Below are positions 15,666 through 47,720 of a stretch of DNA of 64,000 nt, piece after piece (position 1 is the first letter of the stretch; each line of letters begins with the position of its first letter). The DNA is from an uncultured Candidatus Saccharibacteria bacterium (lineage in GTDB: Bacteria; Patescibacteriota; Minisyncoccia; Phycocordibacterales; CSBR16-119). The stretch is from contig CAZZCB010000002.1 of assembly GCA_964652835.1 (NCBI GenBank), positions 584-64,583 on the forward strand, written 5' to 3'. Made by a program: the position numbers and the translations under genes. Below the pieces are notes generated by a model. That model was not told the origin of the DNA and ran no database searches. It saw only the letters and a program-made list of their open reading frames with translations.

Positions 15666-17549
15666 ATGAATCAAAACAAAGAAGAGGGAGCTGTGGAGAT
15701 GAGCAAGGGGATGGTAGGTGTTGGGGTCGCTCTGGCACTTGCGCTAATTATTGGATTTTTTGTATATCCGAATATTCTTCATCAAAAAGGAGAACTTGCA
15801 CCAGACGCTCCAAAAAATTTGGCGGGTACAGCGGGAGATGGAATTCTTGATTTAACCTGGACTGCTCCAGCAGACGGAGGGTCTCCTATCACCTCATATA
15901 ATGTTAAATATGATGTTGTTGGTGGTGAAAATGAAACTATTGTTGATACTCGTACAAATAAAGCTTTCTATACTTTGACAGGGCTTACAAATGGTGAGAC
16001 TTATACGGTGTCTGTATCTGCGGTAAACGCAATAGGCGAGGGTCTGTATTCAGCTACGGCAGAATTTGGACTTGATGCGGTTGATGTGGGTGCGCCTCCA
16101 ACCGCCGCAACAAATCTTTCTGCTACAGGAGGTCAAAATAAAGTTAACTTAACCTGGGATGCTGCAGCAGAAAAAGGGTCTGCTATTACTGACTATATTG
16201 TTGGTTATAGAGTGAAAGAAAGTGGTCTTGATTACACAGAAATTTCTACCAAATCAACAAACACAGCATATTCAGTATTAGACCTTGCTGATGCTACTAT
16301 CTATGAGTTTGTTGTTTATGCTGTCAGTGATGCGGGAAATAGTGCGGCCTCTGCTGCTGCTACGGCTACCACTCTACCAGCTCTTGATCCTGGTGTAGAC
16401 CTTTCAATATCTACTGAGCCAACTGTTACCGTAACAAGTAACAGCGCGGAGATAACTTGGGGAACATCAAAATCAGCATCTTCTCAAGTTTACTACGGGG
16501 TAACAGACAGTATGGGGTCAATGACTGAAAAGATGAATACGACTCCGATGGTTAAAGGGCACACAGTAAGCCTCAGCTCCCTTGCTTCTTGTACGATCTA
16601 TGTTTACAAAGTTGCGTCTTTTGACTCTGAGGAAAATATGGTTGAAAGCACGGCTGGTGAATTCACCACTGCGGGCTGTAAAGGAGACGCTTCTGTGATA
16701 ACTTACTCAAAAGACAAAGCAACAGCAGATACTGGGGTTACAGTTACAGCTAAGGTTTCAGGAAGAGGTCTTACTGTTACAGTTCCAGCAGCGGTTGTTA
16801 CAGGATCAGACGTGGCAATCCAAGCACTAAAAGTTTCTAAAGATGAGGTTGTCGCAGAAATAGCGAAACCTGCTGGAAAAGAATGGATTGGTTCACCTTA
16901 CATCCTAAACGCTATCGAAAACGCATCCACAGAAGTAACATCTTTTGATAAGCCGGTAACAGTTTCTATAGATTACCAAAATGAAGATGTTGGAAATGTA
17001 GATCCAAATACGTTAAAGATTTGGCACTATGAAGATGGGGCGGGATGGAGAGAGTTATCTTCTTGTTCTACTTCGTTAAACGGTGTTGGTGGAACTGTGA
17101 CTTGTTCCACAACCTCATTCTCTGTGTTCGGTTTGTTTGGTGAAGAGGGTTCTGGTGGCGGTGATACTGGAGGTGGTGATAATGACCCCACGCCTTCTCC
17201 TTCAAGACCTTCTACTACAACAGGAAGTGTCCCTACAAATCCGATAGTTGTTAATCCTCCAATGGATAACAATGAATATAATTTTACAAAAAATCTATGG
17301 GTAGGAATTCGAGATATGGATGTAAAACTACTACAAAGATTTCTAAACCTAAAAGGATTCACTGTTTCAACAGACGGACCTGGATCAGCGGGGCAGGAAA
17401 CTGAATTCTTCGGAGCTAAAACAAAACAGGCTTTGATCAAGTTTCAAGAAGCTTACAAAGTAAATATTTTAACTCCGATAGGTCTTAATTTAGGAACAGG
17501 ATTCTTCGGGCCTCAGACAAGAAATTATATAAATTCAATGTCTAACTAA
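15666..17549 (+). CDS. Secreted fibronectin-III-repeat surface protein with a C-terminal peptidoglycan-binding-like module.
   Basis: N-terminal TM/signal. Two FN3-like units ('LDLTWTAPADGGSPITSYNVKYD', 'VNLTWDAAAEKGSAITDYIVGYR') and a PAP-N-like FN3 ('AEITWGTSKSASSQVYYG'). A Pro/Thr/Ser linker. C-terminal 'LLQRFLNLKGF...FGAKTKQALIKFQ'. Confidence 0.75.
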   Translation: MNQNKEEGAVEMSKGMVGVGVALALALIIGFFVYPNILHQKGELAPDAPKNLAGTAGDGILDLTWTAPADGGSPITSYNVKYDVVGGENETIVDTRTNKAFYTLTGLTNGETYTVSVSAVNAIGEGLYSATAEFGLDAVDVGAPPTAATNLSATGGQNKVNLTWDAAAEKGSAITDYIVGYRVKESGLDYTEISTKSTNTAYSVLDLADATIYEFVVYAVSDAGNSAASAAATATTLPALDPGVDLSISTEPTVTVTSNSAEITWGTSKSASSQVYYGVTDSMGSMTEKMNTTPMVKGHTVSLSSLASCTIYVYKVASFDSEENMVESTAGEFTTAGCKGDASVITYSKDKATADTGVTVTAKVSGRGLTVTVPAAVVTGSDVAIQALKVSKDEVVAEIAKPAGKEWIGSPYILNAIENASTEVTSFDKPVTVSIDYQNEDVGNVDPNTLKIWHYEDGAGWRELSSCSTSLNGVGGTVTCSTTSFSVFGLFGEEGSGGGDTGGGDNDPTPSPSRPSTTTGSVPTNPIVVNPPMDNNEYNFTKNLWVGIRDMDVKLLQRFLNLKGFTVSTDGPGSAGQETEFFGAKTKQALIKFQEAYKVNILTPIGLNLGTGFFGPQTRNYINSMSN

Positions 17550-17812
17550 ACCTAAAATAAGCTAAATAAAACAGGCACCTTTTTGACAAAGGTGCTTGTT
17601 TTAGTAATATATATAACGATATTTAGTAAGGTACTTGACAAATGGTATACATTTAGTGTATAATCCGTCATGTATAAAAACCCTAAAGAAAAAGTAATAA
17701 GGGTCAGCATTGTTCGTTCAGAGACACAATAAGAGACAAAAAGTCTTTTATAGGTGTCCTTTATCAGTTAGTTATTAGTAGAAAGCTTATTAGTTTTTAA
17801 AAGACATATTAT

Positions 17813-20806
17813 ATGAAGAAATTCAAGAAAAATATCTCAAAGACAATTTTCGCTTCATTCTTTGTTTTACAGTTTGTGGTATCGACAGCGTTCATGCCAC
17901 TTGCTGCTAACGCACAAGAAGTAGCGGCTGAAGAATCTTCGAAAGAAGAAGTCTCAGAGGCTCAAAAAGAGGAAGCGCCAGAGGTGACAGAAGAAGTTGT
18001 CTCAGACGTTAAAGAAGAAATTTTAATAGAAGACATAAAAGACTTAGAAGAGGTTGTCTCTGTCGAATCAACTACAGTTTCAGAAGAAATTGTCCTTGAT
18101 GAATCAGCGGCGCCTGTAAAAGAAACTGAAAGCCCTGTTTTCCAAACAGTAGGTGCTCTAGCTTCTGTAAAAGTTTGTAAGGTGATAATCGACTCAGAAG
18201 GAAATATCGTTTCTGACTGGTCAGCTTATCCTGGAGCAACTTTTTCTACAAATCTTAATTTTCAAGGGGCTCAGTACTCTTTTGAATTTTCAACATCTGG
18301 AGAAATAAATTACGCAGACGGGTATGCTTTCGCTGCTGTTTGTGATACCCAGGAATTTGCAATTGATACTTCAGTAGAAGGTCTTAAGTTTGTTAAATAT
18401 ACAGAAGAAGACCCTGCTGGACCATACTCTTGGGTAAGAAATTACTTCGAGGGTGACGCTCAAGGTGAAACTGGATTGTATAACAATCTTGGTGGGGCAA
18501 TGTTTGCGCCGTTCACATCAGAAGATACTGCTTATGACGGTCAATTCGAATTAAACGGAAATGATAGTGGTTTTGATACTACAACTCTTTTCCTTGTTAA
18601 CGAAGAAATAAAAACCGTTAACCCATCTTGTGATAAAGATTTAAATCTTATTACAAACGGAGGATTTGAAAATCCAAACGTTGGTGGAAACTGGAATATT
18701 TTCCAAGACGGAACATCTGGTCTTGGTTGGATGGTTGCTTGGGAAGGTTCTGCAGGAAATAATTCTGTAGCCAATCTTGAAATCCACGGAGGCGTGGCCG
18801 GATGGGAAGCTTCAGAAGGAAATCAATATGCAGAGCTTGACTCTGACTTTGATGGACCAACTGGCTCAATTCAAAATGAATCAGCATCAACTAGAATTTC
18901 ACAAGTATTAAACACTGTCCCTGGACAAACTTATGAAATATCTTTTGACTTTGCTGCTCGTCCTGGAACTGATTATGCTGACAATCGACTCGGACTATAT
19001 CTTGACGACGTTGCTTGGGATACAAGCTTTACGAGAACAAACGTTGACGGTACACAACCAAACTGGGTTACAATAACAAGAACTTTTACTGCTGTTAAAT
19101 CAACAACAATAATTTCTTTTGCTGACCTAGGTACTCCAGACTCTTTCGGAACTTTACTTGATAACGTTTCTGTAAAATGTATCGATGGAGGTCCAGTGGA
19201 TATAAATATTCCACCAAAAATAGTTGTTAACCCACTTGAAGTTTGTTTACCTCTAACTGCTACAACTTATGACTTCCTGGCAGGAGTTACAGGTGAAGAT
19301 GCAGAAGACGGAACAATTACTTTAACAGAGGCAAATTACACTCACAATATTATTTTTGGAACAGCTGGTACTTATACTATTAACTACACTGTAACTGATA
19401 GCGACGGCGCTACTGCGACTGACTCTCGAACAGTTTTTGTAAAAGAAAATTGCGGAGGTGAGCCAGAAGAATGTCCAGCAATCATTAGAGTTAGTGAAAA
19501 TGGAAGAGAAGGAATGGTAGAAGTTTCAAGACTTAACCCAAGATGGGTAAACTCAATCCCAGGAAGCTCTGCAGAATGGGTATGGAACAATGCTGCTATC
19601 CCAGTTTTCCCTGATCGACAAAACGGAGGAACATTCACAGTTACTGAAACATTTAATATTGTTGGTAACCCAGAAGCTTCTGAAATAAAGATCGCTGCTG
19701 ATAACGTGTACTCTGTGGTTGTAAACGGTAACACTGTTTACGGTAACCCAGCGCTAACACCAGCAGATATTGAAAACATTACATCTCCAGAGTCTCGATT
19801 CGGAGTTGTATACTCACACGCAATTCCAGCTAATTTACTAAACACTGGATCAAACACAATCGTAATACGAGCTGTTAATCAAGAGTGGCCACTAGTTCTA
19901 ACATCAGCAAATGTAGACACTAACCCAGCAGGATTAATGTATGCACTTACAGTAAACGAAGATTGTGATGACGGCGATGGTGGTGATGGAGGAGGAAGTG
20001 ACGATTTAACAGTCGTTGTTTCAGACTCTTGTGTTGAAAGAGGAACAGAAAACTTTGACTTTTTGTCAGGCATAACTGTTACTCACACACTTCTAAATGG
20101 TAATGTAACTCTTGTAGAAGGTGATAACGTAACAATTACAGAATCTGTTGACTTCAATGTAAACGGAAACTACACAGTAACTTACTCATTCAATATTCTA
20201 GGAGAACAAGTTTCAGAAGACCGAATAATCTCAATACAAGATGATTGTGGTAACGGTGGAGGCGGAGGAAATGGTGGAGGAGGTTCTTCTTCATCAGGTT
20301 CTCGAAGAAATTCTGACGGTGAAGTATTAGGTGCTACAAGTTGTGTTGCATTTACTACATACAACCGATCAGGAAACACAGGAGGAGAAATTAAAGCCCT
20401 ACAAACATTCCTAAACCTATACATGAACGCAGGATTAACAGTTGATGGAGTTTATGGAGCAACAACAGTACAAGCTGTTCACGATTTCCAAGCTTTCCAC
20501 TGGAAAGAAGTTATCGATCCATGGACACCACCACTTTCTCCTAACACTACAGGATGGCAATACAAGACAACAAGAATGACTATAAACGCTATTATTGATT
20601 GTCCAGAAGCCCCAGTATACCTAGAAGATCCAGGCGTGATGTACCAAGTACTAGAAGTAACAGACCAAAAAGAACTAACAACAGGCGAACTTGAAACAAT
20701 CTACAATTTACTAGCAGAGGCTCAGTCAGGAAATGTTCTTGGCGCTTCATCAGTAAATAGTATTGATTACTCAAATCCAAATTTTGACCTAATGTTCGGA
20801 AAATAA
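17813..20806 (+). CDS. Large secreted surface protein: acidic N-terminal region, a DUF642-like jelly-roll domain, Ig-like domains, and the C-terminal peptidoglycan-binding-like module. Paralog of 24159..26051.
   Basis: Signal peptide MKKFKKNISKTIFASFFVLQFVVSTAFMPLAANA. 'NGGFENP...GW...LEIHGG..GWEA.EG.QYAELDSD'. 'GGGGSSSSGSRRN' then 'GEIKALQTFLN...DGVYGATTVQAVHDFQ'. A strong terminator lies at 20860-20899. Confidence 0.8.
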   Translation: MKKFKKNISKTIFASFFVLQFVVSTAFMPLAANAQEVAAEESSKEEVSEAQKEEAPEVTEEVVSDVKEEILIEDIKDLEEVVSVESTTVSEEIVLDESAAPVKETESPVFQTVGALASVKVCKVIIDSEGNIVSDWSAYPGATFSTNLNFQGAQYSFEFSTSGEINYADGYAFAAVCDTQEFAIDTSVEGLKFVKYTEEDPAGPYSWVRNYFEGDAQGETGLYNNLGGAMFAPFTSEDTAYDGQFELNGNDSGFDTTTLFLVNEEIKTVNPSCDKDLNLITNGGFENPNVGGNWNIFQDGTSGLGWMVAWEGSAGNNSVANLEIHGGVAGWEASEGNQYAELDSDFDGPTGSIQNESASTRISQVLNTVPGQTYEISFDFAARPGTDYADNRLGLYLDDVAWDTSFTRTNVDGTQPNWVTITRTFTAVKSTTIISFADLGTPDSFGTLLDNVSVKCIDGGPVDINIPPKIVVNPLEVCLPLTATTYDFLAGVTGEDAEDGTITLTEANYTHNIIFGTAGTYTINYTVTDSDGATATDSRTVFVKENCGGEPEECPAIIRVSENGREGMVEVSRLNPRWVNSIPGSSAEWVWNNAAIPVFPDRQNGGTFTVTETFNIVGNPEASEIKIAADNVYSVVVNGNTVYGNPALTPADIENITSPESRFGVVYSHAIPANLLNTGSNTIVIRAVNQEWPLVLTSANVDTNPAGLMYALTVNEDCDDGDGGDGGGSDDLTVVVSDSCVERGTENFDFLSGITVTHTLLNGNVTLVEGDNVTITESVDFNVNGNYTVTYSFNILGEQVSEDRIISIQDDCGNGGGGGNGGGGSSSSGSRRNSDGEVLGATSCVAFTTYNRSGNTGGEIKALQTFLNLYMNAGLTVDGVYGATTVQAVHDFQAFHWKEVIDPWTPPLSPNTTGWQYKTTRMTINAIIDCPEAPVYLEDPGVMYQVLEVTDQKELTTGELETIYNLLAEAQSGNVLGASSVNSIDYSNPNFDLMFGK

Positions 20807-20955
20807 AACTAAACAAACAGAAGTAAGATTTGTTCTTGATGTAAAATGTACTTTATACAAAAGACCCGCCGGCGCTTGCGCCGGCGGGTCTTTTGTTTTC
20901 CACAAACTTTTAAAATATTTTTATTTTTTAATTGCTATAATATAAACAGATATTT

Positions 20956-21453
20956 ATGAAAAATAAAAGTTTTTCAAAAACCAAATTTAACATTGCTTGG
21001 GCTTCTATCGTCACTATCTTTATTGGCGCTGTTGTTTATGTACCAGCGCTCAAGTTTTCTCAAAAAGAAAAAGAAGTTGTTTACTATAGAGTTCCTGTTT
21101 TTGTTAACATGACGCCTTCTACTGAAAATGGAGGTCAGCCTACAAATTCAGAGTCAGAAAAAGAAGAACCTTTAATAAAAGTATCTAATTCTCGTATCAC
21201 TAAAGATTTAAAATTAGGTGACGTTGACGAAGAAGTTAAGCTCCTACAAGAGTATCTTAATGGTAGAGGATTTCTTGTTGCAGAGTCTGGACCTGGCTCA
21301 CCAGGTCAAGAGACGACAAGGTTCGGCGCCGGAACTCGCGACGCCCTGATAAAGTTCCAAGAAGCAAATGCGGAGCTTATCCTAAAACCTTTTGGTCTAA
21401 AAGAGGGAACAGGAGTGGTGGGTAAAATGACAAGAGATTTAATTAACTCATAA
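20956..21453 (+). CDS. Small membrane-anchored protein with a peptidoglycan-binding-like C-terminal module.
   Basis: N-terminal TM (IAWASIVTIFIGAVVYV). C-terminal 'VKLLQEYLNGRGFLVAESGPGSPGQETTRFGAGTRDALIKFQ' is nearly the same module as the 15666 gene's C-terminus. Confidence 0.6.
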   Translation: MKNKSFSKTKFNIAWASIVTIFIGAVVYVPALKFSQKEKEVVYYRVPVFVNMTPSTENGGQPTNSESEKEEPLIKVSNSRITKDLKLGDVDEEVKLLQEYLNGRGFLVAESGPGSPGQETTRFGAGTRDALIKFQEANAELILKPFGLKEGTGVVGKMTRDLINS

Positions 21454-21456
21454 TAT

Positions 21457-22824
21457 ATGAAAAAAATATTTACAGTGTTCTTACTAGCAGTGATTTATTT
21501 CGCTCCTTTTTCTGCTCGTGCAGAAAGCATTCCCCCTTCAGCTCCGCTTAATTTAGAGATTACAAACCTCGGAGATTTAACAGTCATGCTTTCTTGGGAT
21601 CCGCCGGCATCAGAAGGTGATTCACCAGTGGGTGGGTACATTATTTACTATGTAGAAAGGGTTTACGGTGATACTTTTATGATAGAGGGTCCAGTTACAA
21701 CTTTCACTACGGGAAAATTAAAGGCTGGAGCTTCTTATGACTTCTGGGTTGTTGCATATAACGCCTATGGGGAAGGTGACATATCAGAGAGAGTTAAAGT
21801 CGTGCCCACAGAAGACGTTACTGGGCCTGTTATAACAGTAGCTCCACAAGTTTCTTCTGTAACAGACAAAACTGCAAATATATATTGGGAAACAGACGAA
21901 TATGCTTCTACATATTTAAATTTTGATGTCCATGGAAATGGTCCACACAACTCAATAAATATTAAAGGTCTAAGTCTTACTCACGATGTTTCCTTAAGTG
22001 GTCTTTTGCCTTGTACTACTTATTTTTACAACGTTACGAGTTCTGATGCCGCTTCAAATACCGTAAGGTCGGATGTAAGTTCGTTCAAGACTAACGGATG
22101 CCTCGGCGCTATTTTAGATGAAATAGAAAGTAGTCTCGGTCTTCCAGTCGATTCGCTGTCTGTAAATTTTGAAAGAAGTGGTGTTGAGGTTTCTCTTCTT
22201 CCAGATTCTTTTGATCTAGAATCTATTTTCCAAATTAAAAAATTAAGCATAGCCGATGTCGATGCAAACGTCGGATGTCCAGCCGGAAACAAACCTATCG
22301 GAGGTCGGATCTACGATATAAAACTTCTAGAAGAATATGACAGACAAGCATCTCTTAAAAAACCAGCGACGGTAACAATGTCTTACGACCACTCAGAACT
22401 CTCTGGTGTTGATGAATCTTTGATCTCAATGTTCCACTACACAGACGAGTCAGGATGGGTAAAGCTTAACTCTTGTACCTTGGACAATGAAAGAGATGAG
22501 ATAACTTGTGAGACAGAGAGCTTTTCAAAATTTATGATTTCTTTTGGTGAAGAATATAAATGCAAGCCTCTTATGAAAAATCTTTCATTTGGAAGCTATC
22601 ATGTAGATGTATTTTCTCTTCAGGAATTTTTAAATAAAAATGGTTTTATGGATTCTTTTAAAGATTCTACTTTTAAGGGGGTAGAAGAGAAGAGGTTATT
22701 CGATGGAAAAACCGCCAAGGCTCTCCGCAGTTTCCAGGAAGCCTCTGGGATAAATGGAATAGAAAAAACACTCAGATTTCTGGGTCCAAAAACAAGAGAT
22801 TTTATAAATAACCAAAATAAATAG
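21457..22824 (+). CDS. Secreted FN3 / purple-acid-phosphatase-N-like repeat protein with a peptidoglycan-binding-like C-terminus.
   Basis: Signal peptide. 'LTVMLSWDPPASEGDSPVGGYIIYY' (FN3), 'ANIYWETDEYASTYLNFDVHG' (PAP-N-like). C-terminal 'LQEFLNKNGF...GKTAKALRSFQ'. Confidence 0.7.
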   Translation: MKKIFTVFLLAVIYFAPFSARAESIPPSAPLNLEITNLGDLTVMLSWDPPASEGDSPVGGYIIYYVERVYGDTFMIEGPVTTFTTGKLKAGASYDFWVVAYNAYGEGDISERVKVVPTEDVTGPVITVAPQVSSVTDKTANIYWETDEYASTYLNFDVHGNGPHNSINIKGLSLTHDVSLSGLLPCTTYFYNVTSSDAASNTVRSDVSSFKTNGCLGAILDEIESSLGLPVDSLSVNFERSGVEVSLLPDSFDLESIFQIKKLSIADVDANVGCPAGNKPIGGRIYDIKLLEEYDRQASLKKPATVTMSYDHSELSGVDESLISMFHYTDESGWVKLNSCTLDNERDEITCETESFSKFMISFGEEYKCKPLMKNLSFGSYHVDVFSLQEFLNKNGFMDSFKDSTFKGVEEKRLFDGKTAKALRSFQEASGINGIEKTLRFLGPKTRDFINNQNK

Positions 22825-22904
22825 TTAAATATCAAAAATATTGGTAAAATTAGTCTAGTGAACTAGGTACTTGATTTTTATTTTATTTATGTTATAATAT
22901 AGAG

Positions 22905-24044
22905 ATGAAAAAAAGCTTTAAAAAATACTTTATCCCAAACCAAGAAAACGACCATAAACCTCACTTTCTAAGAGAAAGGTCTGTTCTTGTTATTTTGGCT
23001 ATTGCCTCAATACTTTTATTCGCCTCAGTCATCGGTACTTACGTTGTTAAAAACTCAAAATTCTTAGCTGCTATACAATCAGCCTTTTTGGTTGATCTTG
23101 CAAACGAAGACAGGGCAGAGCAAGGTGCTGGCAAGCTTGTTATGAACGACGAACTTGTCTTAGCTGCTCAGTTAAAAGCAAATGATATGGCACAAAAAAG
23201 TTACTTTGCCCACACGAGCCCTGAAGGCTTAACTCCTTGGCATTGGTTCGGACAAGCTGGCTACGACTATATCTACGCTGGAGAAAACTTGGCTGTTAAC
23301 TTCAATAGATCTGAAGATGTTCAAAGAGCGTGGATGAATTCACCTCTACACCGAGCAAACATTTTGAATAATAGATATAAAGAAATCGGTATCGCTACTG
23401 CAGAAGGTATGTATAAGGGTGAAAAGACAACCTTCGTTGTTCAGATGTTCGGAACGCCGACTACTACAAATCTTAATACTACTCCCGCCCCTCAAACAGC
23501 GTCAGTAAATGATATTCCCGACGCAGAGGAGCCAGCAGAGCTCGTCGCTTCTGTTGATTTAAATCCAGAGGTGGAAGGAGAATCTATTGTAAAACCTGAA
23601 GTTAAAAAAGAAGCCCCGGTAGAATCTACGCCAGAGCCTTCTGTAAAAACTCAAACAAAAGTTGCGCAGATAGAAAAACCAACTCAGGCCGAAACTAAAA
23701 CAGAAGTTTCTACAGAGGTGTCTGGTCCTGAAAACATTTTCACTGAGACAACAAACCCTCTATACGAAGGTCAGAATGTCGCCGGAGCGGAAGACCCTCA
23801 AACTGAAGTAACTTATACAAATTGGTTTGAAAGATTTTTAGTGAATCCTGGAGATGCGGTAAACAAAGCTTATGTAATACTCTTCGTAATAATCCTATTT
23901 TCTATAATTCTGAAGATATTTATCGCGATAAATAAGCAACATCCAAAAAATATTGCTTACGGAGTATTGCTCCTAATCCTGGTTCTGATATTTATGTATA
24001 TCAACCAAGAGATATTCATACAGCCAGTAGTGGCATCAGTCTAA
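22905..24044 (+). CDS. CAP/SCP/PR-1 (YkwD-like) domain protein with an N-terminal TM, a Thr/Pro/Glu-rich linker and a C-terminal TM.
   Basis: 'LAAQLKANDMAQKSYFAHTSPEGLTPWHWFGQAGYDYIYAGENLAVNFNRSEDVQRAWMNSPLHRANIL' matches the CAP-domain consensus (GENIA...WMNSPGHRANIL). Confidence 0.75.
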   Translation: MKKSFKKYFIPNQENDHKPHFLRERSVLVILAIASILLFASVIGTYVVKNSKFLAAIQSAFLVDLANEDRAEQGAGKLVMNDELVLAAQLKANDMAQKSYFAHTSPEGLTPWHWFGQAGYDYIYAGENLAVNFNRSEDVQRAWMNSPLHRANILNNRYKEIGIATAEGMYKGEKTTFVVQMFGTPTTTNLNTTPAPQTASVNDIPDAEEPAELVASVDLNPEVEGESIVKPEVKKEAPVESTPEPSVKTQTKVAQIEKPTQAETKTEVSTEVSGPENIFTETTNPLYEGQNVAGAEDPQTEVTYTNWFERFLVNPGDAVNKAYVILFVIILFSIILKIFIAINKQHPKNIAYGVLLLILVLIFMYINQEIFIQPVVASV

Positions 24045-24158
24045 TAAAACAAAACAAAAAATACCGTATGTCAATACGGTATTTTTGTTGACAACATGAA
24101 AATATCAGAACATAATGATAAATAAGGAAGATTACTTTTAATAAAAGTTCTTAAGGGC

Positions 24159-26051
24159 ATGCAAATGTCATATTTATCATTTAATTTTATTAATATTATG
24201 AAAAGAAATATTTTAACTAAGGTTTTGAGTTTGTTTACTATATTTGCGATGACTTTTAACGTCGCTTTTGCAGCTAACGAAACTATTACTATTTGTCACG
24301 TTCCACCGGGAAATGAGGGAAATCCTCAAACTTTGAATATATCTATTAATGCTTGGGAAAACGCTCATGATTCTGGAACGGGCGAGCATTCAAACGATTA
24401 TGAAGGGCCATGTGATGGCGATGAAGAACCAGCACCCTTGGTTTGTGCGGAAAATCTAAGCATAGTAAATGGTGGTTTTGAAAACCCTTTAGTAGGGAAT
24501 GAATCAGGATGGCAACTTTTCCCAAACGGAACAGTTGATTTGGGCTGGACGGTTACTTGGGTTTCTCCAGATGGAAATGCTCCATCAGAGGCAAACCTAG
24601 AAATTCACGGCGGTGTTAATGGATGGGAAGCTTTAGAAGGAGGGCAATACGCAGAGCTTGGATCAGATTATGGAGACCCTGCAGGAGGATTAGCTGCGAC
24701 TAAAATTTCTCAAGAATTCGATACAATAGAAGGAGCCACTTATGAGATTGCTTACTCTTTTGCTGCAAGACCAAACACATCAGAAGATGAAAATATTTTA
24801 AAAGTTTACATAAATGGTGACGAAGTAGAGTCTCATGGGCCAGTTGCCGGAGGAGAATCTAATCTTTGGTCTACTTACTTTATTGAATTCGCAGCCACAG
24901 GAGACTCAACAGAAATTTCTTTTGAAGACGCGGGAACAGTAAATTCAGTCGGAACATTTCTAGATGATGTTTCTGTTATCTGTGTTTCTGATGCAGAAGT
25001 TCCAGAAGTATGTTTACCGATTGTTAGAATCAGTGAAAACGGAAGAGAAGGAATGGTAAAAGTTACAAAGGTTAACCCAAGATGGGTTCCTTCAATCGCC
25101 GGAACTAACGCTAAGTGGGTATGGAACAATGCATCAATACCAGTATTTCCAGACAGACAAGATGGTGGAGTGTTCACAGTTAATGAAACAATCAATATTG
25201 TAGGAAATCCACAAGACTCTGAAATCAAAATAGCTGCAGACAACGTATACTCTGTTGTTGTAAACGGTGACACTGTTTACGCTTACAGTGGTAACCCAGC
25301 TTTGACTCCAGGAGATATCGAAAATATTCCATCTACTGATTCTAAGTTTTCTGTTGTGCATGAACACACAATTCCAGCTAACTATTTAAACACAGGATTA
25401 AACACAATCAAGATAAGAGCTGTAAACCAAAAATGGACACCAGTTCTAACATCAGAAAGTACAGCTACAAACCCAGCAGGTTTAATGTATGCACTGACTA
25501 TTAATGAAGATTGTGATGGTGGGGGAGATCAAGAAAACGATGAACCAGCAGATGAACAACCAGAAGAAAATGACGAAAGTGAGCCAAACGATCCAGTTTC
25601 TGAAACTGAAGACGAATCTGTAAATATAGAAGAAGATAATAACCAAAATTCAGGAAGCTCTTCATCAGGCTCACGAGCCTCTGGAGGCGGAGCAGTTCTA
25701 GGAGCTTCTACAGAAGGAGAAGTTCTCGGAGCTTGTGTTCCTTTCGCTATGTATCACAAAAAAGGTGATGTTGGTGGGGAGGTTGCAAAAATCCAAGAAT
25801 TCTTAAATGAACAAATAAATGCAGGACTTACAGTTGACGGAGTTTATAACGAAGCAACTGAAAAAGCTGTTCACTCTTTCCAACAAAAATATTTCGAGCA
25901 AGTAATCTCACCTTGGGTTCCGTCATTTATGGCGAGAACAACAGGAAAGTGGTACAAGACAACTAGAATGATGGCAAACAAAATTATTGATTGTCCAGAA
26001 GCTCCAGTTTATCTTGAAGACCCAAAGATTATATACGAAGTTAAATGGTAA
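24159..26051 (+). CDS. Secreted surface protein with a DUF642-like jelly-roll domain, a conserved middle domain and a peptidoglycan-binding-like C-terminus. Paralog of 17813..20806.
   Basis: Signal anchor. 'NGGFENPLVGNESGWQLF...LEIHGGVNGWEALEGGQYAELGSD'. An about-170-aa block about 60% identical to the 17813 gene ('VRISENGREGMVKVTKVNPRWV...NPAGLMYALTINEDCD'). An acidic DE-rich linker, 'GSSSSGSRASGG', then 'EVAKIQEFLN...DGVYNEATEKAVHSFQ'. Confidence 0.8.
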   Translation: MQMSYLSFNFINIMKRNILTKVLSLFTIFAMTFNVAFAANETITICHVPPGNEGNPQTLNISINAWENAHDSGTGEHSNDYEGPCDGDEEPAPLVCAENLSIVNGGFENPLVGNESGWQLFPNGTVDLGWTVTWVSPDGNAPSEANLEIHGGVNGWEALEGGQYAELGSDYGDPAGGLAATKISQEFDTIEGATYEIAYSFAARPNTSEDENILKVYINGDEVESHGPVAGGESNLWSTYFIEFAATGDSTEISFEDAGTVNSVGTFLDDVSVICVSDAEVPEVCLPIVRISENGREGMVKVTKVNPRWVPSIAGTNAKWVWNNASIPVFPDRQDGGVFTVNETINIVGNPQDSEIKIAADNVYSVVVNGDTVYAYSGNPALTPGDIENIPSTDSKFSVVHEHTIPANYLNTGLNTIKIRAVNQKWTPVLTSESTATNPAGLMYALTINEDCDGGGDQENDEPADEQPEENDESEPNDPVSETEDESVNIEEDNNQNSGSSSSGSRASGGGAVLGASTEGEVLGACVPFAMYHKKGDVGGEVAKIQEFLNEQINAGLTVDGVYNEATEKAVHSFQQKYFEQVISPWVPSFMARTTGKWYKTTRMMANKIIDCPEAPVYLEDPKIIYEVKW

Positions 26052-40287: not shown

Positions 40288-40818
40288 CTAGTGTGACGTA
40301 TGAAGTCTTTTGATTACGAAGAACTTCTCCATGACGCAAACAGTCACAGTCCGCCCCCTCCTGGTTTTTAGCGCTTGGTGGTCGGAGGTAGGTATTACTC
40401 TCACTCTCTCGCCCCCATAAGTCCTTATAATAGAAGGCTTCAAATCATCACTCTTCTTTTGCATACCCCTAAATGCAATTCGTATTGATCTTTTTAGAGT
40501 GGAAGATATACCGACGCCACCAACTCGGCGGATCTTAAAGTCGGCGTATTCTTGATCAGACTCGTACAGACGAGCTTCATAGTGCAAGTAGAAACACGAA
40601 TCTGTCTCGCCCGTAATGGTTAACCGTAAATATTCTACGGAAACAGGGTAGTTGATCGCCAGAGAATCGCCAACCTCTTTTGCAAAGTTATTAGCGAATT
40701 CTTCAATCTGGTGAGTCTTAAGCGTGGACACCTCCATTTCTCTCACTACAACTATTTGGCTATTAGCTTTTGTGACAAAAGCCAAAGCAAGAACGAAAAA
40801 GAGCACCTTGGTTTTCAT
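40288..40818 (-). CDS. Hypothetical secreted protein (signal peptide; higher-GC ORFan).
   Basis: 176 aa. N-terminal 'MKTKVLFFVLALAFVTKANSQ' is a signal peptide. No recognised domain. Confidence 0.5.
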   Translation of the reverse strand: MKTKVLFFVLALAFVTKANSQIVVVREMEVSTLKTHQIEEFANNFAKEVGDSLAINYPVSVEYLRLTITGETDSCFYLHYEARLYESDQEYADFKIRRVGGVGISSTLKRSIRIAFRGMQKKSDDLKPSIIRTYGGERVRVIPTSDHQALKTRRGRTVTVCVMEKFFVIKRLHTSH

Positions 40819-40899: not shown

Positions 40900-41928
40900 A
40901 TGTCAGAATTAGCATTATATAGAAAATACCGCCCGTCAGCTTTCGATGAAGTTTTAGGGCAAGATCATATTGTTAAAGTTTTAAAAGGGGCTTTAAAGCT
41001 CGGGAATATTTCTCACGCATATCTTTTTCATGGACCGCGTGGTACAGGAAAAACATCTATCGCTAGAATCGTAGCGAGCGAGCTCGGCACGAAAGACCAC
41101 GATATTTACGAAATCGACGCCGCTTCAAATAGAAAAATAGAAGATATTAGAGAAGTTCGGGATTCGGTCCGAACGATGCCTTTTGATTCAAAGTATAAAG
41201 TTTATATAATAGACGAAGTGCACATGCTTACAAAAGAGGCCTTCAATGCACTTCTTAAAACCTTAGAAGAACCGCCAGCTCACGTAATATTTATTTTAGC
41301 TACGACAGAGCTAGATAAAGTTCCTGACACTATCGTTTCTCGTTGTCAAACTTTTACTTTTCACAAACCAACCATTTCTATCTTAAAAGATTTAGTTATC
41401 TCTATTGCTAAAAAAGAAGGAGTGGCGATAGACAATGCTGGAGCTGAGCTAATCGCTCTGCTTGGTGACGGGTCTTTCCGAGACACGCAAAGTACTCTGC
41501 AAAAAGTAATGTCTTTTTCTAAAGATAAGAGCTTAAGTATAAAAGAAATAGAAGAAGTGACAGGTGCGCCGAGCAGTGAGTTGGTAAATGATTTCATCCT
41601 TTCTTTGGTGGAAGGAGATTTACAAAAAGGTTTTCAGGCTTTAAAAAACGCTGAAGAAAAAAATATCGACATAAACACTTATCTAAAACTTATTTTAATA
41701 AAATTAAGATTAGCACTTTTGATGCGCTATGCTCCAGAGATGAAAAAAATCTTAGAAGAAGAGATTATAGATTCTGATAAAGAATTCTTCAAAGAAATAC
41801 TAAAAGATAAAAAGGGAATAATTACTTCGAAAACATTAGAGACGTTGCTTGAAGCAGAAAAGCAAATAAAACACACTTTTGTTAAAAGTCTTCCCTTGGA
41901 AATGGCTTTAACTAAGATTATTTCTTAG
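40900..41928 (+). CDS. dnaX: DNA polymerase III subunit gamma/tau, short form.
   Basis: 'YRKYRPSAFDEVLGQDHIVKVL...HAYLFHGPRGTGKTSIARIVA', DExx box 'KVYIIDEVHMLT', SRC motif 'VSRCQTFTF'. Only domains I-III (342 aa). Confidence 0.8.
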   Translation: MSELALYRKYRPSAFDEVLGQDHIVKVLKGALKLGNISHAYLFHGPRGTGKTSIARIVASELGTKDHDIYEIDAASNRKIEDIREVRDSVRTMPFDSKYKVYIIDEVHMLTKEAFNALLKTLEEPPAHVIFILATTELDKVPDTIVSRCQTFTFHKPTISILKDLVISIAKKEGVAIDNAGAELIALLGDGSFRDTQSTLQKVMSFSKDKSLSIKEIEEVTGAPSSELVNDFILSLVEGDLQKGFQALKNAEEKNIDINTYLKLILIKLRLALLMRYAPEMKKILEEEIIDSDKEFFKEILKDKKGIITSKTLETLLEAEKQIKHTFVKSLPLEMALTKIIS

Positions 41929-42027
41929 TTTTCCACAAAATAAAGCTTTTATTACCCGGCTAATTTGTTATGGTTAGACTATAGGTATTTCAAATATTGA
42001 TTTTACTATTAAGAATAAAATATAAAA

Positions 42028-44223
42028 ATGTTTAAAAAAATAATATATATCCTAACTATCATCGCGCTCTTTGTATTTCAACCGAATACCATGAGCGCTT
42101 CGGTTGAAAATATCACCATCCTTAGTAAAAGCAATGACGGTGTTTTGGGAAACTCTCATTCATCCGACGGTATGTTGTCTAAGGATGGAAATTTTGTTGT
42201 ATTTATTTCGCAGGCTTCAAACTTGGTTGCCGGGGACACAAATGATTTAGCGGATGTGTTTGTATATGAAATAGAGACTGATACAGTTGAAAGAGTAAGT
42301 ATTAGTACTCTTGGTGTTGAATCAAATGGCGAATCTTTTGATGCAGACATGTCTGGAGATGGAAGATATGTTGTTTTTGTTTCTGGTGCTACAAATCTTG
42401 TACCCGGAGATACAAATGGTGATGATGATATTTTTATTTACGATAGAGATACTAACTCTATTGAGATCGTAAGTATTGGATTGGGTGACGAAAAAACATC
42501 CTCAGTATCCTCATCCTCAGATGGTGCATCAGCGATGCCATCAATATCTTTAAATGGAAGGTATGTTGTATTTGAATCTGTTGCCACTAACCTAATTGAA
42601 GGTGACACCAACGGTGAAAGTGATATTTTCATTAGAGATCTTCTGTTAGATACTACTGAAAGAGTTAGTATTACTAATGAAGGAAATGAGGCTGTTGGCT
42701 ATTCTGTCGCCCCAGCAATGTCAAGCGATGGAAGATATGTTTCTTTTTTATCAGAGGATAATACTCTCGTCTCCGGAGACACAAACGCTCTTTCAGATTA
42801 CTTTGTAAGAGATCTGTTGCTCAATACTACTGAAAGGGTAAATGTTAGTTCAGAAGAAGTAGAGTCAAACGGTTTATTGTCTACGGTTACAAGACATGGT
42901 ATTTCAAATGATGGAAGATATGCTGTATTTTCTTCTTTGGCCACAAATCTTGTACCTGGAGATACAAACGGAGTTGATGATATTTTTGTTCGCGATATAG
43001 AGATTGGTACGACAGAGAGAATAACACTAAGACCAGATGGAACTGAGGCTAGCGACACTACCACAACTTTCCCCTCAGGAATTTCATCTGATGGTAGATA
43101 TGTTTCTTTTTATTCTGGTTCACCACAGTTTGTTGAAGGGGACACAACGTCTGGCGAGTATAATTATGACGTTTTTGTTAGAGATTTATTGCTCGATACA
43201 ACTAGAAGAATTAGCTTATCTCAAGATGGAGAAGAGGGGAATGCTGGTTCATATGCATCCGTGGTGTCACTAACCGACGGGGGAAGGTATGCGGTATTCA
43301 ACTCAGGGGCAACCAACTTTGTGGAAAACGATATAAATGCCGTAGATGACGTTTTTCTTGTTGAGATATCAGATGAAGATGGAATATCGTCTGTTATTGA
43401 AAATGCGGCACCAAATACAGGAGATATAGATGAGAACGGGTACATTGATTCAATTGAGCAGAATGTTTCTTCTTTTGTTAATTCCGTTTCTGGAAATTAT
43501 ACTTCAGTTGTTACAACAGGCGATTGCTTCTATAATTCAAATCTTAATTCAGAGGCAGAATCAGAACTTGCATCAGAAGACGCAGAATACGACTATCCTT
43601 TGGGAATTATTTCTTTCGAAGTTAATTGTCGAGAAGCAGGTGAGACAGCAACAGTTTCTGTTTATTGTTTCTGTAATCAAACACCACTAGAAGGCTTGGT
43701 TGCTAGAAAATACGACCCAGATACTGGTGAATACACGACAATAGAATCTGCCGTTATCGAAGAAGTAACTATTGACGGTCAAAGAGCTTTGAAGATGACA
43801 TATGATGTTGTCGACGGTGGATCTTTAGATGAAGATGGTCTTGAAAATGGTACTATTATCGACCCAGTTGGATTTGCCAAGCCGGCTGCCGTCGTGCCGG
43901 CGAGTAGTTCTGGAAGTTCAAGTTCTTCTGGATCAAGACCAAGAATAAATTTAATTGCTCAAGCTCCAGTACAAAACACATCAAATGATGTTTGTGTAAA
44001 ATCTTCATTCAAAACTTTAATGAAAAAAGGTTCTAAGTTTGGTGAAGTTTCAAGACTACAAGAAGTTTTAAATGCTTCGGGCTTTAACTCTGGCATCGTT
44101 GATGGACTTTTCGGACCGATGACAGACCTAGCTGTAAAAGCTTTCCAAACAGAAAACAGCCTAGATTCTGATGGTATCGTTGGGCCGATGACGAGAGGGG
44201 TTTTGAATTTGAAGTGTTTGTAA
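42028..44223 (+). CDS. Secreted 7-bladed beta-propeller (PD40/TolB-like repeat) surface protein with a canonical C-terminal PG_binding_1 domain.
   Basis: Signal anchor. Seven about-48-aa repeats 'S.ATNLV.GDTN...DIFVRD....TERVS'. 'SSSGSSSSSGSRPR', then 'FGEVSRLQEVLNASGFNSGIVDGLFGPMTDLAVKAFQTENSLDSDGIVGPMTRGVL'. Confidence 0.75.
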   Translation: MFKKIIYILTIIALFVFQPNTMSASVENITILSKSNDGVLGNSHSSDGMLSKDGNFVVFISQASNLVAGDTNDLADVFVYEIETDTVERVSISTLGVESNGESFDADMSGDGRYVVFVSGATNLVPGDTNGDDDIFIYDRDTNSIEIVSIGLGDEKTSSVSSSSDGASAMPSISLNGRYVVFESVATNLIEGDTNGESDIFIRDLLLDTTERVSITNEGNEAVGYSVAPAMSSDGRYVSFLSEDNTLVSGDTNALSDYFVRDLLLNTTERVNVSSEEVESNGLLSTVTRHGISNDGRYAVFSSLATNLVPGDTNGVDDIFVRDIEIGTTERITLRPDGTEASDTTTTFPSGISSDGRYVSFYSGSPQFVEGDTTSGEYNYDVFVRDLLLDTTRRISLSQDGEEGNAGSYASVVSLTDGGRYAVFNSGATNFVENDINAVDDVFLVEISDEDGISSVIENAAPNTGDIDENGYIDSIEQNVSSFVNSVSGNYTSVVTTGDCFYNSNLNSEAESELASEDAEYDYPLGIISFEVNCREAGETATVSVYCFCNQTPLEGLVARKYDPDTGEYTTIESAVIEEVTIDGQRALKMTYDVVDGGSLDEDGLENGTIIDPVGFAKPAAVVPASSSGSSSSSGSRPRINLIAQAPVQNTSNDVCVKSSFKTLMKKGSKFGEVSRLQEVLNASGFNSGIVDGLFGPMTDLAVKAFQTENSLDSDGIVGPMTRGVLNLKCL

Positions 44224-44245: not shown

Positions 44246-44286
44246 AAAGCTCGGGGCGCGCTTCGCGCGCCCCAAGCTTTTTTATT
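44246..44286 (+). terminator. Rho-independent terminator (AGCTCGGGGCGCGC-ttc-GCGCGCCCCAAGCT followed by TTTTTT).
   Basis: 14-bp GC stem plus T-run. Confidence 0.8.
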
Positions 44287-44341: not shown

Positions 44342-44659
44342 ATGGTACAATACAAAATCAAGATCGAGCCTTCAGTACTTGCCGATTCAAAAGGCAAGAA
44401 AGATCTGGTACTGGTGGCGGTGGGTAAACATCAGATTTCTCGTGAAGGGGAGTGTCTTAGCCTTCGCACCAATTACCATGTTACAGTCATCGATGACGAG
44501 GGTTTGCGGTGCCCAGGTCAAACTCTTCGTGTCGATGTGCCACGCGAAGGTGGATACACCATTATCTTGGGGCATCCAGACGGAGCCTCGAGGGAGGTTA
44601 CAGACGAGGAGCTTTCAGGGTTGACCTTTGAGTTCGTCTCAAGCGAGGTGACACTTTGA
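44342..44659 (+). CDS. Hypothetical protein (higher-GC ORFan).
   Basis: 105-aa ORF followed by the terminator GAGCGCCAGA-tttc-TGGCGCTC plus T6 at about 44678-44710. Confidence 0.35.
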   Translation: MVQYKIKIEPSVLADSKGKKDLVLVAVGKHQISREGECLSLRTNYHVTVIDDEGLRCPGQTLRVDVPREGGYTIILGHPDGASREVTDEELSGLTFEFVSSEVTL

Positions 44660-44828: not shown

Positions 44829-44899
44829 TGCCGGATCGTCTAATGGTAGGACTCTGGTTTTTGGTACCAGCTATCTAGGTTCGAGTCCTAGTCCGGCAG
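44829..44899 (+). tRNA. tRNA-Gln (anticodon TTG).
   Basis: Acceptor TGCCGGA/TCCGGCA, U8, D-arm GTC-TAATGGTA-GAC, anticodon stem CTGGT/ACCAG with loop TTTTGGT, T-arm CTAGGTTCGAGTCCTAG. Confidence 0.8.
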
Positions 44900-45104
44900 C
44901 AGCCAAGTGAGAGCTATCGAGACTCTTAAAATCGCTATATTTTCCAAAGCATTTTAAGAACGAGTCATGGGCACGAACCCTCCAAAGGGGGTGTCCTAGA
45001 CTCTTCAAGTTTCGGTAGAAATCAAAGGTAACTATTCCGCACATTGCATACCTGCTGAGAGCAGTATCCAGAACAGAAAGCCATCTGAGAAGGTGGTTTT
45101 TTGT

Positions 45105-45139
45105 TTGACTTGCACTATACCCCCTAGGGGTATATAATG
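45105..45139 (+). promoter_or_regulatory. csoR-cop promoter with an embedded CsoR-type operator (perfect IR TATACCCCC-TA-GGGGGTATA).
   Basis: -35 TTGACT/TTGCAC, -10 TATAAT at about 45133-45139. The 20-bp GC-tract inverted repeat at 45116-45135 sits in the spacer and overlaps the -10. It resembles known CsoR operators (ATACCC...GGGTAT). Confidence 0.6.
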
Positions 45140-45421
45140 CTAAGTATGAAATATATGGAAGATAAAAGTAAAGGAAAGATTATCCGTCGCCTCAAGCTTA
45201 TCGAGGGGCAGATTCGAGGCCTGCAAAAGATGATTGAAAGCGATACCTACTGTATTGACGTGATCACCCAAACCTCTGCGGTCAAGCAGGGACTTTCCAA
45301 TGTGGAAGACTTACTGCTCGAAAATCATCTTGGTGGATGCATCCTGAATCAGGTGAAAGCTGGACAGACTGAAAAGGCAAAGCAGGAAATTTTAAAAGTT
45401 TATAAGCTAAAGAGAAAATAA
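45137..45421 (+). CDS. csoR: CsoR/RcnR-family copper-sensing transcriptional repressor.
   Basis: '[52 protein letters not shown]' carries the conserved Cys...His...Cys metal ligands of the DUF156 family. Confidence 0.8.
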
Positions 45422-45425
45422 TTTT

Positions 45426-47720
45426 ATGCACACACAGACATATAACGTAAAAGGAATGCATTGTGCCTCATGCTCATCTGTTATTGAAAAAACATTTAAG
45501 AAAGTCGAGGGGGTGCATTCTGCGGAAGTGAACTATGGTACAGAAAGGGCGAAGGTTTCCTTTGATCCTTCAAAAACCAGTCCTCATGACCTCTCTAAGC
45601 ATATCGAACCTCTCGGGTATTCTCTTGAGGTTCCCGAGACAGCGAACGAGATGGGTATGTCCGAAAGCGAACATGCGGCACATCTAGGGCTCAACCAATC
45701 TAAGAAAGAAAAACTTGCTGAGGTTAGTGATATGCGAACGAAAGTTCTCTCTGCAATTCCGCTGGCAGTTTTTGCCGCTTTCGTTATGGGTTGGGATATT
45801 CTCGCTGAGTACAGCATCGTTCCTGCAATGAGTTATACGCTCAAGGAATTCTTTCATCATCTCCTTCCGATATTTGCCACTTATATCCTTTTCGTCGTAG
45901 GTAAGCCGTATCTTCTCGGCTTTTATAGGTTTCTTCGATACGGTAAAGCGAACATGGATACGCTTATCGGTATCGGTACGGTAGCCGCCTTTTTATACAG
46001 CTTCGCTGTCAGTGCACTTGAGGACGTTCTTAGTCCGTTTATTAATGTCGAGTACCAATACTACGACGTAACGATTGTTGTTATCACCTTTATTGCACTC
46101 GGTAAGTACCTTGAAGCAAAGTCTAAAATTAAGACAGGTGATGCAATCGAGAAGCTTCTCAACCTTCAGGCGAAGACCGCTCTTGTTGTTCGTGATGGGA
46201 AGGAAATCGAGATTTCAGTGAATGATGTTAAGCATGGCGATTTCATTATTGTTAAGCCAGGTGCAAAGATTCCTGTTGATGGCGTTATTACTGAAGGGGC
46301 ATCTTTTGTTGACGAATCGATGGTTACAGGGGAACCGATGCCTGCCCAGAAAAAGATTGGTGACAATGTCGTATCGGGAACAATAAATACAAGCGGATCG
46401 TTCACTTTTAAAGCCACAAAGGTCGGATCAGAAACTCTTTTGGCTCAGATCATAAAGATGGTTGAGGACGCACAAGGAAGCAAGGCTCCCATACAGGCAC
46501 TGGCAGACAAAATATCAGCAATTTTTGTGCCCATAGTTCTTGTAATTGCATTCCTTAGTCTCGGCACATGGCTTATTGTCGGGTCGCAATATCTCGGATT
46601 TTCTCAGGCACTTTCATTTGGTCTCGTATCTTTTGTAGGAATTCTAGTGATCGCCTGTCCGTGTGCACTCGGACTTGCTACTCCAACCGCAATCATTGTG
46701 GGAGTCGGCAAAGGTGCTAAGGAAGGTATCCTCATCAAAGATGCGGCTACTCTCGAAAAGCTTCATAAGGTAAACACTATCGTCGTTGATAAAACAGGCA
46801 CAATTACAAAAGGCAAGCCGACACTTGTCGACATACAAAACTTATCTAGCTTAAAAGATGATGAACTTGTTTCAATCCTTGCCTCACTTGAGAAGAAGTC
46901 AGAGCATCCGATCGCGCACGCAATCGTAAATTATGCACAGGAGAAAAATATCTCAATATCTGATGTTTTCAATTTTGAAGGAATACAAGGAAAGGGTCTC
47001 AAGGGTGAGATCGGTGACACTGAGTATTTTGCAGGAAACGCAAAACTTGTGAGTGACCTCAAGATTTCATTTGACGCTGGTAAGTTAGATAAGTTCACTT
47101 TGCAGGGAAAGACACCTGTGATTCTTGCAACCAAAGAGAAGGTTCTTGGTTTCGTAATGGTGGCAGATGAGATCAAAGAGGAGTCAGTAGATGCTATTAA
47201 AAACCTCCATGCACTCGGTATTAAAGTGGTTATGCTTACCGGTGATGATGAGAAAGCTGCAAAGTATATCGGATCACTCGTTGGTATCGACGATGTTGTA
47301 GCCCATGTATTGCCACAAGATAAGCTTGAGAAAATAAAGGAGTTACAATCGCAAGGTCGCATTGTTGCAATGGCGGGAGATGGCGTGAATGATGCCCCTG
47401 CACTTGCCCAAGCCGATGTGGGTATTGCCATGGGGACGGGTACTGACGTGGCGATCGAGTCAGCAGGCATTACCTTGCTTGGCGGTGATATTTCAAAGCT
47501 GGTTAAGGCCATTAAGCTTTCCAAGATAACCATGCGAGGAATCAAGCAAAATCTTTTTTGGGCATTCATCTACAATGTTGTCGGTATACCGCTTGCGGCA
47601 GGAGCTTTCTATCCAATCTTCGGTTGGCTTCTGAATCCCATCTTCGCTGGCTTTGCCATGGCGATGTCGTCGGTCTCCGTGGTATCAAATTCACTTCGAA
47701 TTAAAGCTAAGAAATTATAA
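45426..47720 (+). CDS. copA: Copper-translocating P1B-type ATPase.
   Basis: N-terminal HMA '[12 protein letters not shown]', TM 'CPC' motif '[11 protein letters not shown]', 'DKTGTIT', '[10 protein letters not shown]'. Confidence 0.95.

Follow-up and report, generated by a model that had tools for sequence, protein, structure and literature searches.

Except for a few cultivated Saccharibacteria, little is known of how the Patescibacteria (candidate phyla radiation, CPR) recognize their partners and attach to them. A gene of an uncultured Candidatus Saccharibacteria bacterium puts this question in a concrete form: what is the role of a secreted protein that joins a beta-propeller to a peptidoglycan-binding domain and is encoded directly after dnaX? 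The gene is contained in a 64,000-nt stretch of DNA (hereafter the window; assembly GCA_964652835.1, contig CAZZCB010000002.1, positions 584 to 64,583 of the forward strand). It is an open reading frame (ORF) of 731 amino acids (aa) plus a stop codon, at positions 42028..44223 of the plus strand (ORF 42028). A first-pass annotation of the window had given exactly these coordinates and had placed the ORF between dnaX and a tRNA-Gln gene. The placement is right: dnaX (40900..41928) ends 99-100 nt upstream, and tRNA-Gln (44829..44900) lies downstream. Public databases label proteins of this type 'hypothetical' or 'PD40 domain-containing'. Here we report a corrected architecture for this protein, consisting of a PD40 propeller, a choice-of-anchor-U beta-sandwich and a PG_binding_1 domain, together with evidence for a recombining head cassette at a fixed chromosomal site. 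The three domains themselves are all catalogued, and a protein of this kind is no surprise. Our analysis makes it probable that the protein is a Sec-exported surface display protein of Patescibacteria, tethered non-covalently to the wall and acting as an adhesin or receptor.

Domain architecture of the ORF 42028 protein

Fifteen full-length orthologs (711-730 aa), from Patescibacteria metagenome-assembled genomes (MAGs), align end to end with the ORF 42028 protein. An identical protein (P0274) is a single record on one 92-kb NCBI contig. Relatives were found in at least seven of 185,579 species genomes, in a scan that used two mid-domain peptide patterns from the stalk described below and gives a lower bound. 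Our literature search found nothing on Patescibacteria with peptidoglycan-binding surface proteins, nor on PD40 in connection with Patescibacteria.

The protein begins with a putative Sec-type signal peptide (aa 1-24, MFKKIIYILTIIALFVFQPNTMSA; 42028..42099, plus strand as for all domains of this ORF) whose n-region contains KK and whose core is hydrophobic. Cleavage is predicted after Ala24, a residue shared by all 16 orthologs. In the AlphaFold2 (AF2) model, aa 3-16 form a lone helix and the first propeller strand begins at aa 26.

The following segment (aa 26-447, 42103..43368) is a seven-bladed PD40-type beta-propeller. It matches the Pfam PD40 family (PF07676, 29.1 bits against a cut-off of 20.9) and contains seven in-register repeats starting near aa 50, 108, 173, 231, 292, 352 and 415, with a mean pairwise identity of 41%. 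Seven tandem repeats had been described in the first-pass annotation, and the motifs that it quoted were all located (anchors at aa 53, 111, 176, 234, 295, 355 and 418); its period of about 48 aa has to be corrected to 58-65 aa (174-195 nt). Five of the seven can also be recognized in the DNA itself, as direct repeats 174-195 nt apart. A first AF2 run with an alignment of 16 full-length orthologs (A1) returned a closed ring over aa 26-447 with a predicted local distance difference test score (pLDDT) of 85-93, in agreement with the PD40/TolB-like seven-bladed propeller that had been proposed. The blade count rests on the repeats and on the secondary-structure string of a predicted model: the DSSP string reads as about seven times four strands, with only partial marking of the A strand in blades 5 and 7. 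The N-terminal strand at aa 26-31 (VENITI, homologous to the TTERVS outer strands) provides the outer strand of blade 7 and so makes a velcro closure. A Foldseek search against the PDB matched the propeller to TolB (E-value = 1e-14), to S9-peptidase propellers and to oligogalacturonate lyase (seven-bladed, TM-score 0.61 over the whole target). By sequence, only the tail has matches among solved structures; the propeller and the stalk have none.

The propeller belongs to the 'GDTN...D-F' subfamily of PD40/TolB-type proteins (PF07676), with which it shares the motif S-x-D-G-R-Y-V-x-F-x-S-x-A-x-N-L-V-x-G-D-T-N-x-x-x-D-x-F. This subfamily has more than 8,000 homologs in many phyla, usually labelled 'PD40 domain-containing protein' or 'Tol biopolymer transport system component'. 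The ORF 42028 protein differs from most of them, which are about 1,000 aa long and bear other C-terminal modules; among the matches listed, only 15 of 120 combine the stalk with PG_binding_1.

Next to the propeller is a beta-sandwich that the first-pass annotation overlooked; no other part of the protein is as conserved. This stalk, or pre-anchor domain (aa 448-620, 43369..43887), consists of a choice-of-anchor-U domain with an N-terminal extension. The NCBIfam choice-of-anchor U model (NF041766) matches aa 519-617 with 58.8 bits against a cut-off of 32 (E-value = 7e-16). The acidic string DGGSLDEDGLENG, previously described as a separate segment following the propeller, is indeed present but is not free: it is the C-terminal Ca-type loop of a folded domain of 170 aa. 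The string SSSGSSSSSGSRPR, also quoted before, is likewise present in the protein. The stalk has two DxDxDG-like acidic loops, NTGDIDENGYID and DGGSLDEDGLENG, by which it is probably stabilised through Ca2+ binding. It also exhibits a near-invariant pair of cysteines (C500/C534) and, near its end, an invariant D-P (D-P-x-G). Its AF2 model was poor in the run with 16 orthologs (pLDDT 34-64). A more diverse alignment of 51 sequences (A2) repaired the model, which is now a beta-sandwich of pLDDT 96.4 and a predicted TM-score (pTM) of 0.91. This provides a high-confidence model for the choice-of-anchor-U module, which has no close solved structure. An autoproteolytic sandwich of the GAIN, ZU5 or FIIND kind was considered and rejected, as the combination that would mark it, a close fold match with a conserved His and nucleophile at the turn before the last strand, is not found here. 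The published 'choice-of-anchor' papers that we found concern other letters of the series, not U.

The C-terminal part is composed of a low-complexity Ser/Gly-rich linker (aa 621-655, 43888..43992; AF2 pLDDT below 50) and a PG_binding_1 domain (aa 656-731, 43993..44220). A motif SSSGSRP (aa 631-638, 43918..43941) is found in the linker, inside a serine run at aa 626-637; S633, S634 and G635 are invariant in the otherwise variable linker. Nearly all of some 30 family members have the motif in the form SSSGSR[P][K/R], even representatives less than 50% identical. The tail had been called a textbook PG_binding_1 domain, and the Pfam match justifies the term: aa 673-726 cover model positions 4-57 of 57 (E-value = 2.6e-14, 53.6 bits against a cut-off of 23). 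Thus, on the two points that the first-pass annotation had named as able to refute it, the repeats are predicted to form a propeller and the C-terminal domain aligns with PG_binding_1. AF2 models the tail as three helices (pLDDT 76-89). The domain is bracketed by the invariant Cys656 and Cys730, which probably staple it by a disulfide bond. Its sequence matches in the PDB are the N-terminal domain of phiKZ gp144 endolysin, SleB and 1LBU (entries including 3bkh, 4fet and 1lbu), and by this homology the tail is expected to bind peptidoglycan. The match to the PG_binding_1 (PF01471) of phiKZ gp144, SleB and the Zn D-Ala-D-Ala carboxypeptidase covers the full three-helix domain. In those proteins the domain directs a hydrolase to its substrate, whereas in the ORF 42028 protein it is C-terminal, Cys-bracketed and apparently the anchor of a non-enzymatic display protein.

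A divergent propeller at a conserved chromosomal site

The gene directly follows dnaX in five genomes: the window, two NCBI MAGs (L002 and L004) and two Logan contigs (L011 and L012). The amino acid identities of RimK, DnaX and the PD40 protein to those of the window are 98, 98 and 56% in L012, 95, 92 and 57% in L004, 90, 98 and 91% in L011, and 88.5, 82 and 55% in L002, respectively. The flanking proteins are thus 82-98% identical, yet four of the five propellers are only about 45-57% identical to each other. The domain-wise comparison of the window with L002 gives 44% identity in the propeller, 89% in the stalk and 72% in the PG-binding domain. The mean entropy among orthologs is 0.56 bits for the stalk versus 1.33 for the propeller. 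Within the propeller, the inner A strands, which line the channel, vary most (1.89 bits), followed by the C-D turns (1.59) and the D-A loops (1.55); the B and C strands vary least. The first-pass annotation had no means of seeing this conserved chromosomal site, at which the head appears to be exchanged by recombination.

Copies of the gene also occur elsewhere. In another genome (L001, 8001..12409) two tandem paralogs of 711 and 710 aa are located between mscL and sodA, away from dnaX. In L002, a 602-aa ORF (10230..12038) without any Pfam hit and absent from the window is inserted directly after the propeller gene; its C-terminus (…SVYPNPNSGTFLV…) resembles a Bacteroidota type-IX secretion sorting domain, which would be odd for a CPR genome.

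Predicted anchoring to the cell wall

An exhaustive HMMER search with the stalk returned 2,454 cluster representatives (E-value ≤ 1e-3). In the best 150 of these 2,454, the domain is nearly always near the C-terminus, ending 10-70 aa before it in most; an xPNTG, LAxTG or similar motif follows in most, and a hydrophobic segment with a basic tail in many. This combination is recognized as a sortase-type sorting signal. The long-tail exceptions among the same 150 are only PD40-family proteins of about 700 aa, with the SSSGSRP linker and PG_binding_1. The domain therefore deserves the name of 'pre-anchor' module, being found directly N-terminal to alternative anchoring devices. In one further locus (L010), two neighbouring proteins with the stalk and SPNTG, one of them bearing NHL-propeller heads, are encoded beside a sortase gene (Pfam Sortase, E-value = 6e-21). 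The ORF 42028 protein contains no LPXTG-type sorting signal, and no genuine one was found in any ORF of the window. As read from these alignments, the covalent sortase anchor is replaced in the PD40 family by a non-covalent peptidoglycan-binding domain. A tail of this kind is a new addition to the anchors known downstream of the choice-of-anchor-U module.

The ORF 42028 protein resembles other choice-of-anchor U proteins (NF041766) in having a 170-aa sandwich directly before a wall-anchoring device, with the common motifs APNxGDxNxDG, the Cys pair and DGGxLDxDGxxNGxIxDPxG; it differs from them in that the relatives found here are mostly xPNTG sortase substrates. Many stalk relatives of one group (P0135-P0271) end 13-20 aa past xPNTG (e.g. 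…VPNTGLGGSQLR), without a hydrophobic tail. Either the sorting signal exists here in a truncated variant, or these short ends arise systematically from gene calling or assembly.

The identity of the wall that is gripped by the tail deserves consideration. Cultivated Patescibacteria are episymbionts on other bacteria (PMC11623550), and the closest solved relatives of the tail are wall-binding domains of phage endolysins, which act on foreign walls. Moreover, the ORF 42028 protein itself lacks both a membrane anchor and a covalent one. The protein could thus be an adhesin of reversed orientation, secreted or loosely held, with its tail gripping the peptidoglycan of the host and its propeller binding the surface of the producer or some other factor. 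We think this arrangement unlikely. In relatives the stalk stands just before sortase signals, i.e. before a device for attachment to the producer's own wall, which speaks for a proximal position of the C-terminus. Six other proteins of the window have the same kind of tail on unrelated heads, which fits a generic self-anchor. Finally, the tail is conserved and the head hypervariable, the opposite of what is expected for a host-specific tail. Among the genes of the window is one for a MurJ lipid II flippase, which is consistent with an organism making peptidoglycan.

A second alternative keeps the protein on its own wall but gives it a housekeeping role. TolB is a six-bladed propeller with an N-terminal alpha/beta domain that works with Pal in diderm periplasms, and the linkage from TolB through Pal to peptidoglycan is established. 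The fusion of a propeller to a peptidoglycan-binding domain recalls this linkage, so that the ORF 42028 protein might be a fused TolB-Pal analogue, an envelope scaffold whose propeller docks a conserved partner. TolB is the top structural match of the propeller, and JGI annotates many of its homologs as 'Tol biopolymer transport system component'. Nevertheless, we rejected the assignment as the TolB protein of the Tol-Pal system: the Pfam scan found no TolB N-terminal domain (TolB_N), the repeats are seven against the six blades of TolB, and the neighbours are dnaX and tRNA-Gln, with no Tol-Pal gene among the genes examined at 39.3-47.7 kb. Nor do propellers of 44-57% identity amid flanking proteins of 82-98% fit a conserved partner, and the full architecture is found in so few genomes (at least 7 of 185,579) that it does not represent a core envelope function. 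A TolB-like scaffold is thus quite improbable.

Mosaic structure of the gene

The domains of the ORF 42028 protein do not share the same closest relatives. The propeller is nearest to P0001 (98% identity) and the stalk to P0001, P0018 and P0027; the tail is nearest to P0015 (92%) and P0020 (87%), being only 70% identical to that of P0001. Another pair of orthologs, P0041 and P0008, exhibits a mosaic of 45% identity in the propeller, 91% in the stalk and 86% in the PG-binding domain.

Binned profiles of DNA identity reveal sharp break points at about 41248, 42000 and 43650. Compared with L012, the window is mostly 89-97% identical through rimK and dnaX, 41-67% from about 42000 to 43650, 78-92% from the stalk end through linker and tail, and 71-87% further downstream as far as about 44700. 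The comparison with L011 gives another pattern: rimK is 71-87% identical and the first third of dnaX 89-90%; between 41248 and about 43650 most bins reach 98-100% (two are at 93-96%), and beyond that point identity drops to about 62%. Window and L011 thus share a tract of about 2.4 kb (41248..43645, plus strand), from about codon 117 of dnaX to about codon 540 of ORF 42028. Outside the tract, the L011 backbone shares only about 76% identity with the window and mostly 86-98% with L002, while the 3' part of dnaX in L011 is 92-94% identical to L012 and 100% to the window. An L002-like backbone with a window/L012-like 3' dnaX marks L011 as the likely recipient; it thus likely received the tract from a window-like donor, as far as the identity profiles tell. 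Synonymous divergence within dnaX changes at the same place: pS between window and L011 is 0.007 in codons 117-342 versus 0.37 in codons 1-116. No compositional anomaly is found, the GC content being 0.33-0.40 in ORF 42028 versus 0.34-0.45 in its neighbours.

The conserved flanks, the propellers of 44-57% identity and the near-identical 2.4-kb tract together make the head look like a recombining allelic cassette. Judged by these patterns, the diversity appears to arise through the swapping of old allelic cassettes rather than through rapid point substitution. At 43024..43095 (codons 333-356), 12 synonymous differences are concentrated in 24 codons of the otherwise near-identical tract shared with L011, which suggests a small secondary conversion patch.

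Proposed function

We propose the following scheme for the protein. After removal of the signal peptide, the three-helix PG_binding_1 tail would grip the cell's own peptidoglycan, and the Ser/Gly-rich linker would span the wall. The rigid choice-of-anchor-U sandwich, putatively Ca2+-stabilised, would serve as a stalk, and the seven-bladed PD40 propeller would face outward as a ligand-binding head. The heads would constitute deeply divergent allelic types (about 45% identical) at one fixed site after dnaX, exchanged between lineages by homologous recombination. For this exchange, dnaX and the 5' end of the gene would offer the homology arm on one side and the conserved stalk that on the other, each head allele being kept under purifying selection. 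Such a pattern would be expected for a surface protein of recognition or adhesion under frequency-dependent pressure from a host cell, a phage or a predator. With its hypervariable and exchangeable head on a stalk and a wall anchor that are both conserved, the protein offers a concrete candidate for a specificity determinant, which can be expressed and tested.

Several points weigh against this scheme. The localisation of the protein and its binding of peptidoglycan and Ca2+ are properties that we infer, and its PG-binding domain could bind the wall of another cell rather than that of the producer. No sigma-70-like promoter was found in the spacer between dnaX and ORF 42028, which bears on the control of its transcription. 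Codon counts gave no sign of positive selection (pN/pS = 0.14 within the tract shared by window and L011), and relaxed constraint, instead of selection, could be part of the reason why the head evolves faster than the stalk. In addition, all of the compared sequences are metagenome assemblies, the exact window allele coming from one contig only, and a chimeric assembly could mimic any single mosaic.

Taken to its end, the last point would make the mosaic an artefact: an ordinary fast-evolving surface protein whose identity switches come from chimeric metagenome contigs. Each compared locus is a MAG or a Logan contig, and the break points lie in conserved sequence, where assemblers may cross strains. 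However, the independent assemblies (L002, L004, L011 and L012) all contain a divergent head between conserved flanks, incongruence between domains is seen in many further orthologs, and all the ORFs are intact and of full length. The recurrence of the mosaic pattern across independent assemblies argues for biology, and we regard an assembly origin, which would bear on the recombination and not on the architecture, as very improbable. The least convincing alternative, a wall-bound enzyme whose propeller would be a lyase or hydrolase acting on polysaccharide or peptide, suits the Foldseek matches to oligogalacturonate lyase and to the gating propellers of S9 peptidases and the common association of PG_binding_1 with wall hydrolases, but is highly unlikely: the Pfam and NCBIfam scans of the protein matched no catalytic domain, the invariant propeller residues (G-Y, S-A-N-L-V-G-D-N, D-F) are those of the repeated structural motif rather than one metal or His site, variability peaks in the channel-lining A strands, and the propeller of S9 peptidases is itself non-catalytic.

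A wall-tethered display protein with a propeller as its head has counterparts of similar design in epibiont-host systems. PilX2 of the Saccharibacteria TM7x carries a seven-bladed propeller required for host binding (PMC11623550), and EsrA of Actinobacteria carries a WD40-class propeller (PMC13622651). Both likewise expose a beta-propeller at the distal end of a spacer. They differ in the class of the propeller (RCC1 and WD40, respectively) and in its carrier (a pilus tip and an Ig-repeat filament). The likeness is one of design and not of descent; they are not homologs of the ORF 42028 protein, and we claim no relation in sequence. By analogy, the stalk-borne and sequence-diverse propellers of PilX2 and of EsrA make a partner-recognition design plausible.

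A more specific scenario is speculative and, on balance, doubtful. The propeller would be the determinant of partner or host recognition of an episymbiotic CPR bacterium, with ancient allelic classes linked to dnaX and swapped between species through the stalk as a homology arm. The SSSGSRP motif, which also occurs in unrelated wall proteins of this genome, would represent an as yet undescribed signal for processing, glycosylation or attachment in the wall of this phylum.

Shared anchor modules in the window

The first-pass annotation had grouped the ORF 42028 protein with seven PG_binding_1 proteins of a locus at 12.6-26 kb and proposed a dispersed family of wall-anchored binders with the same C-terminus. 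We count six such proteins rather than seven (ORFs 12608, 15666, 17813, 20956, 21457 and 24159), the CAP-domain ORF 22905 having no PG_binding_1 domain. The identity of the C-terminus holds for three of the six, ORFs 12608, 17813 and 24159, which exhibit an SSSSGS[RF] linker and a Cys-flanked tail, and fails for the other three. Because of insertions, the PG_binding_1 domains of the locus cover only about 41 of the 57 model positions.

Two anchor sub-types can thus be distinguished in the window (12608..26051 and 43993..44220). The first, with the Ser-rich motif and the Cys-bracketed domain, comprises ORFs 12608, 17813, 24159 and 42028; the second comprises ORFs 15666, 20956 and 21457, in which a GPGSxGQET insertion is found and both the Cys pair and the Ser motif are missing. 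The heads on the anchor module of the locus are unrelated (FG-GAP, fn3 and DUF642/Ig). As no second copy of the propeller or the stalk was found in the window, what is dispersed is a shared anchor module on unrelated heads, and not a paralogous family. The SSSGSR-type motif precedes the PG-binding tail of ORFs 12608 (aa ~788), 17813 (aa ~825) and 24159 (aa ~500). From this distribution, SSSGSRP could be a signal for processing, glycosylation or attachment, or could simply travel with the anchor cassette.

Neighbouring genes

Between ORF 42028 and tRNA-Gln there are a terminator-like hairpin and a 105-aa ORF (44342..44659), both omitted from the first-pass annotation. The hairpin (44253..44273, plus strand), identified by a consensus scan only, has nine G-C pairs and a T run extending to 44283, and lies 30 nt past the stop codon. 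The 105-aa ORF does not match any family; its position and length are kept in L002 (24% identity), and it is 69% identical in L012.

On the other side, an ORF of 176 aa (40288..40818, minus strand) is located between rimK and dnaX. It has a signal-peptide-like N-terminus and no Pfam match, and is found in the window and L012 and absent from L011 and L002. Just past tRNA-Gln, the translations of 45137..47720 read as a CsoR-like metal-responsive repressor followed by a heavy-metal (copper-type) P-type ATPase; the syntenic genes of L011 match the Pfam families Trns_repr_metal and E1-E2_ATPase.

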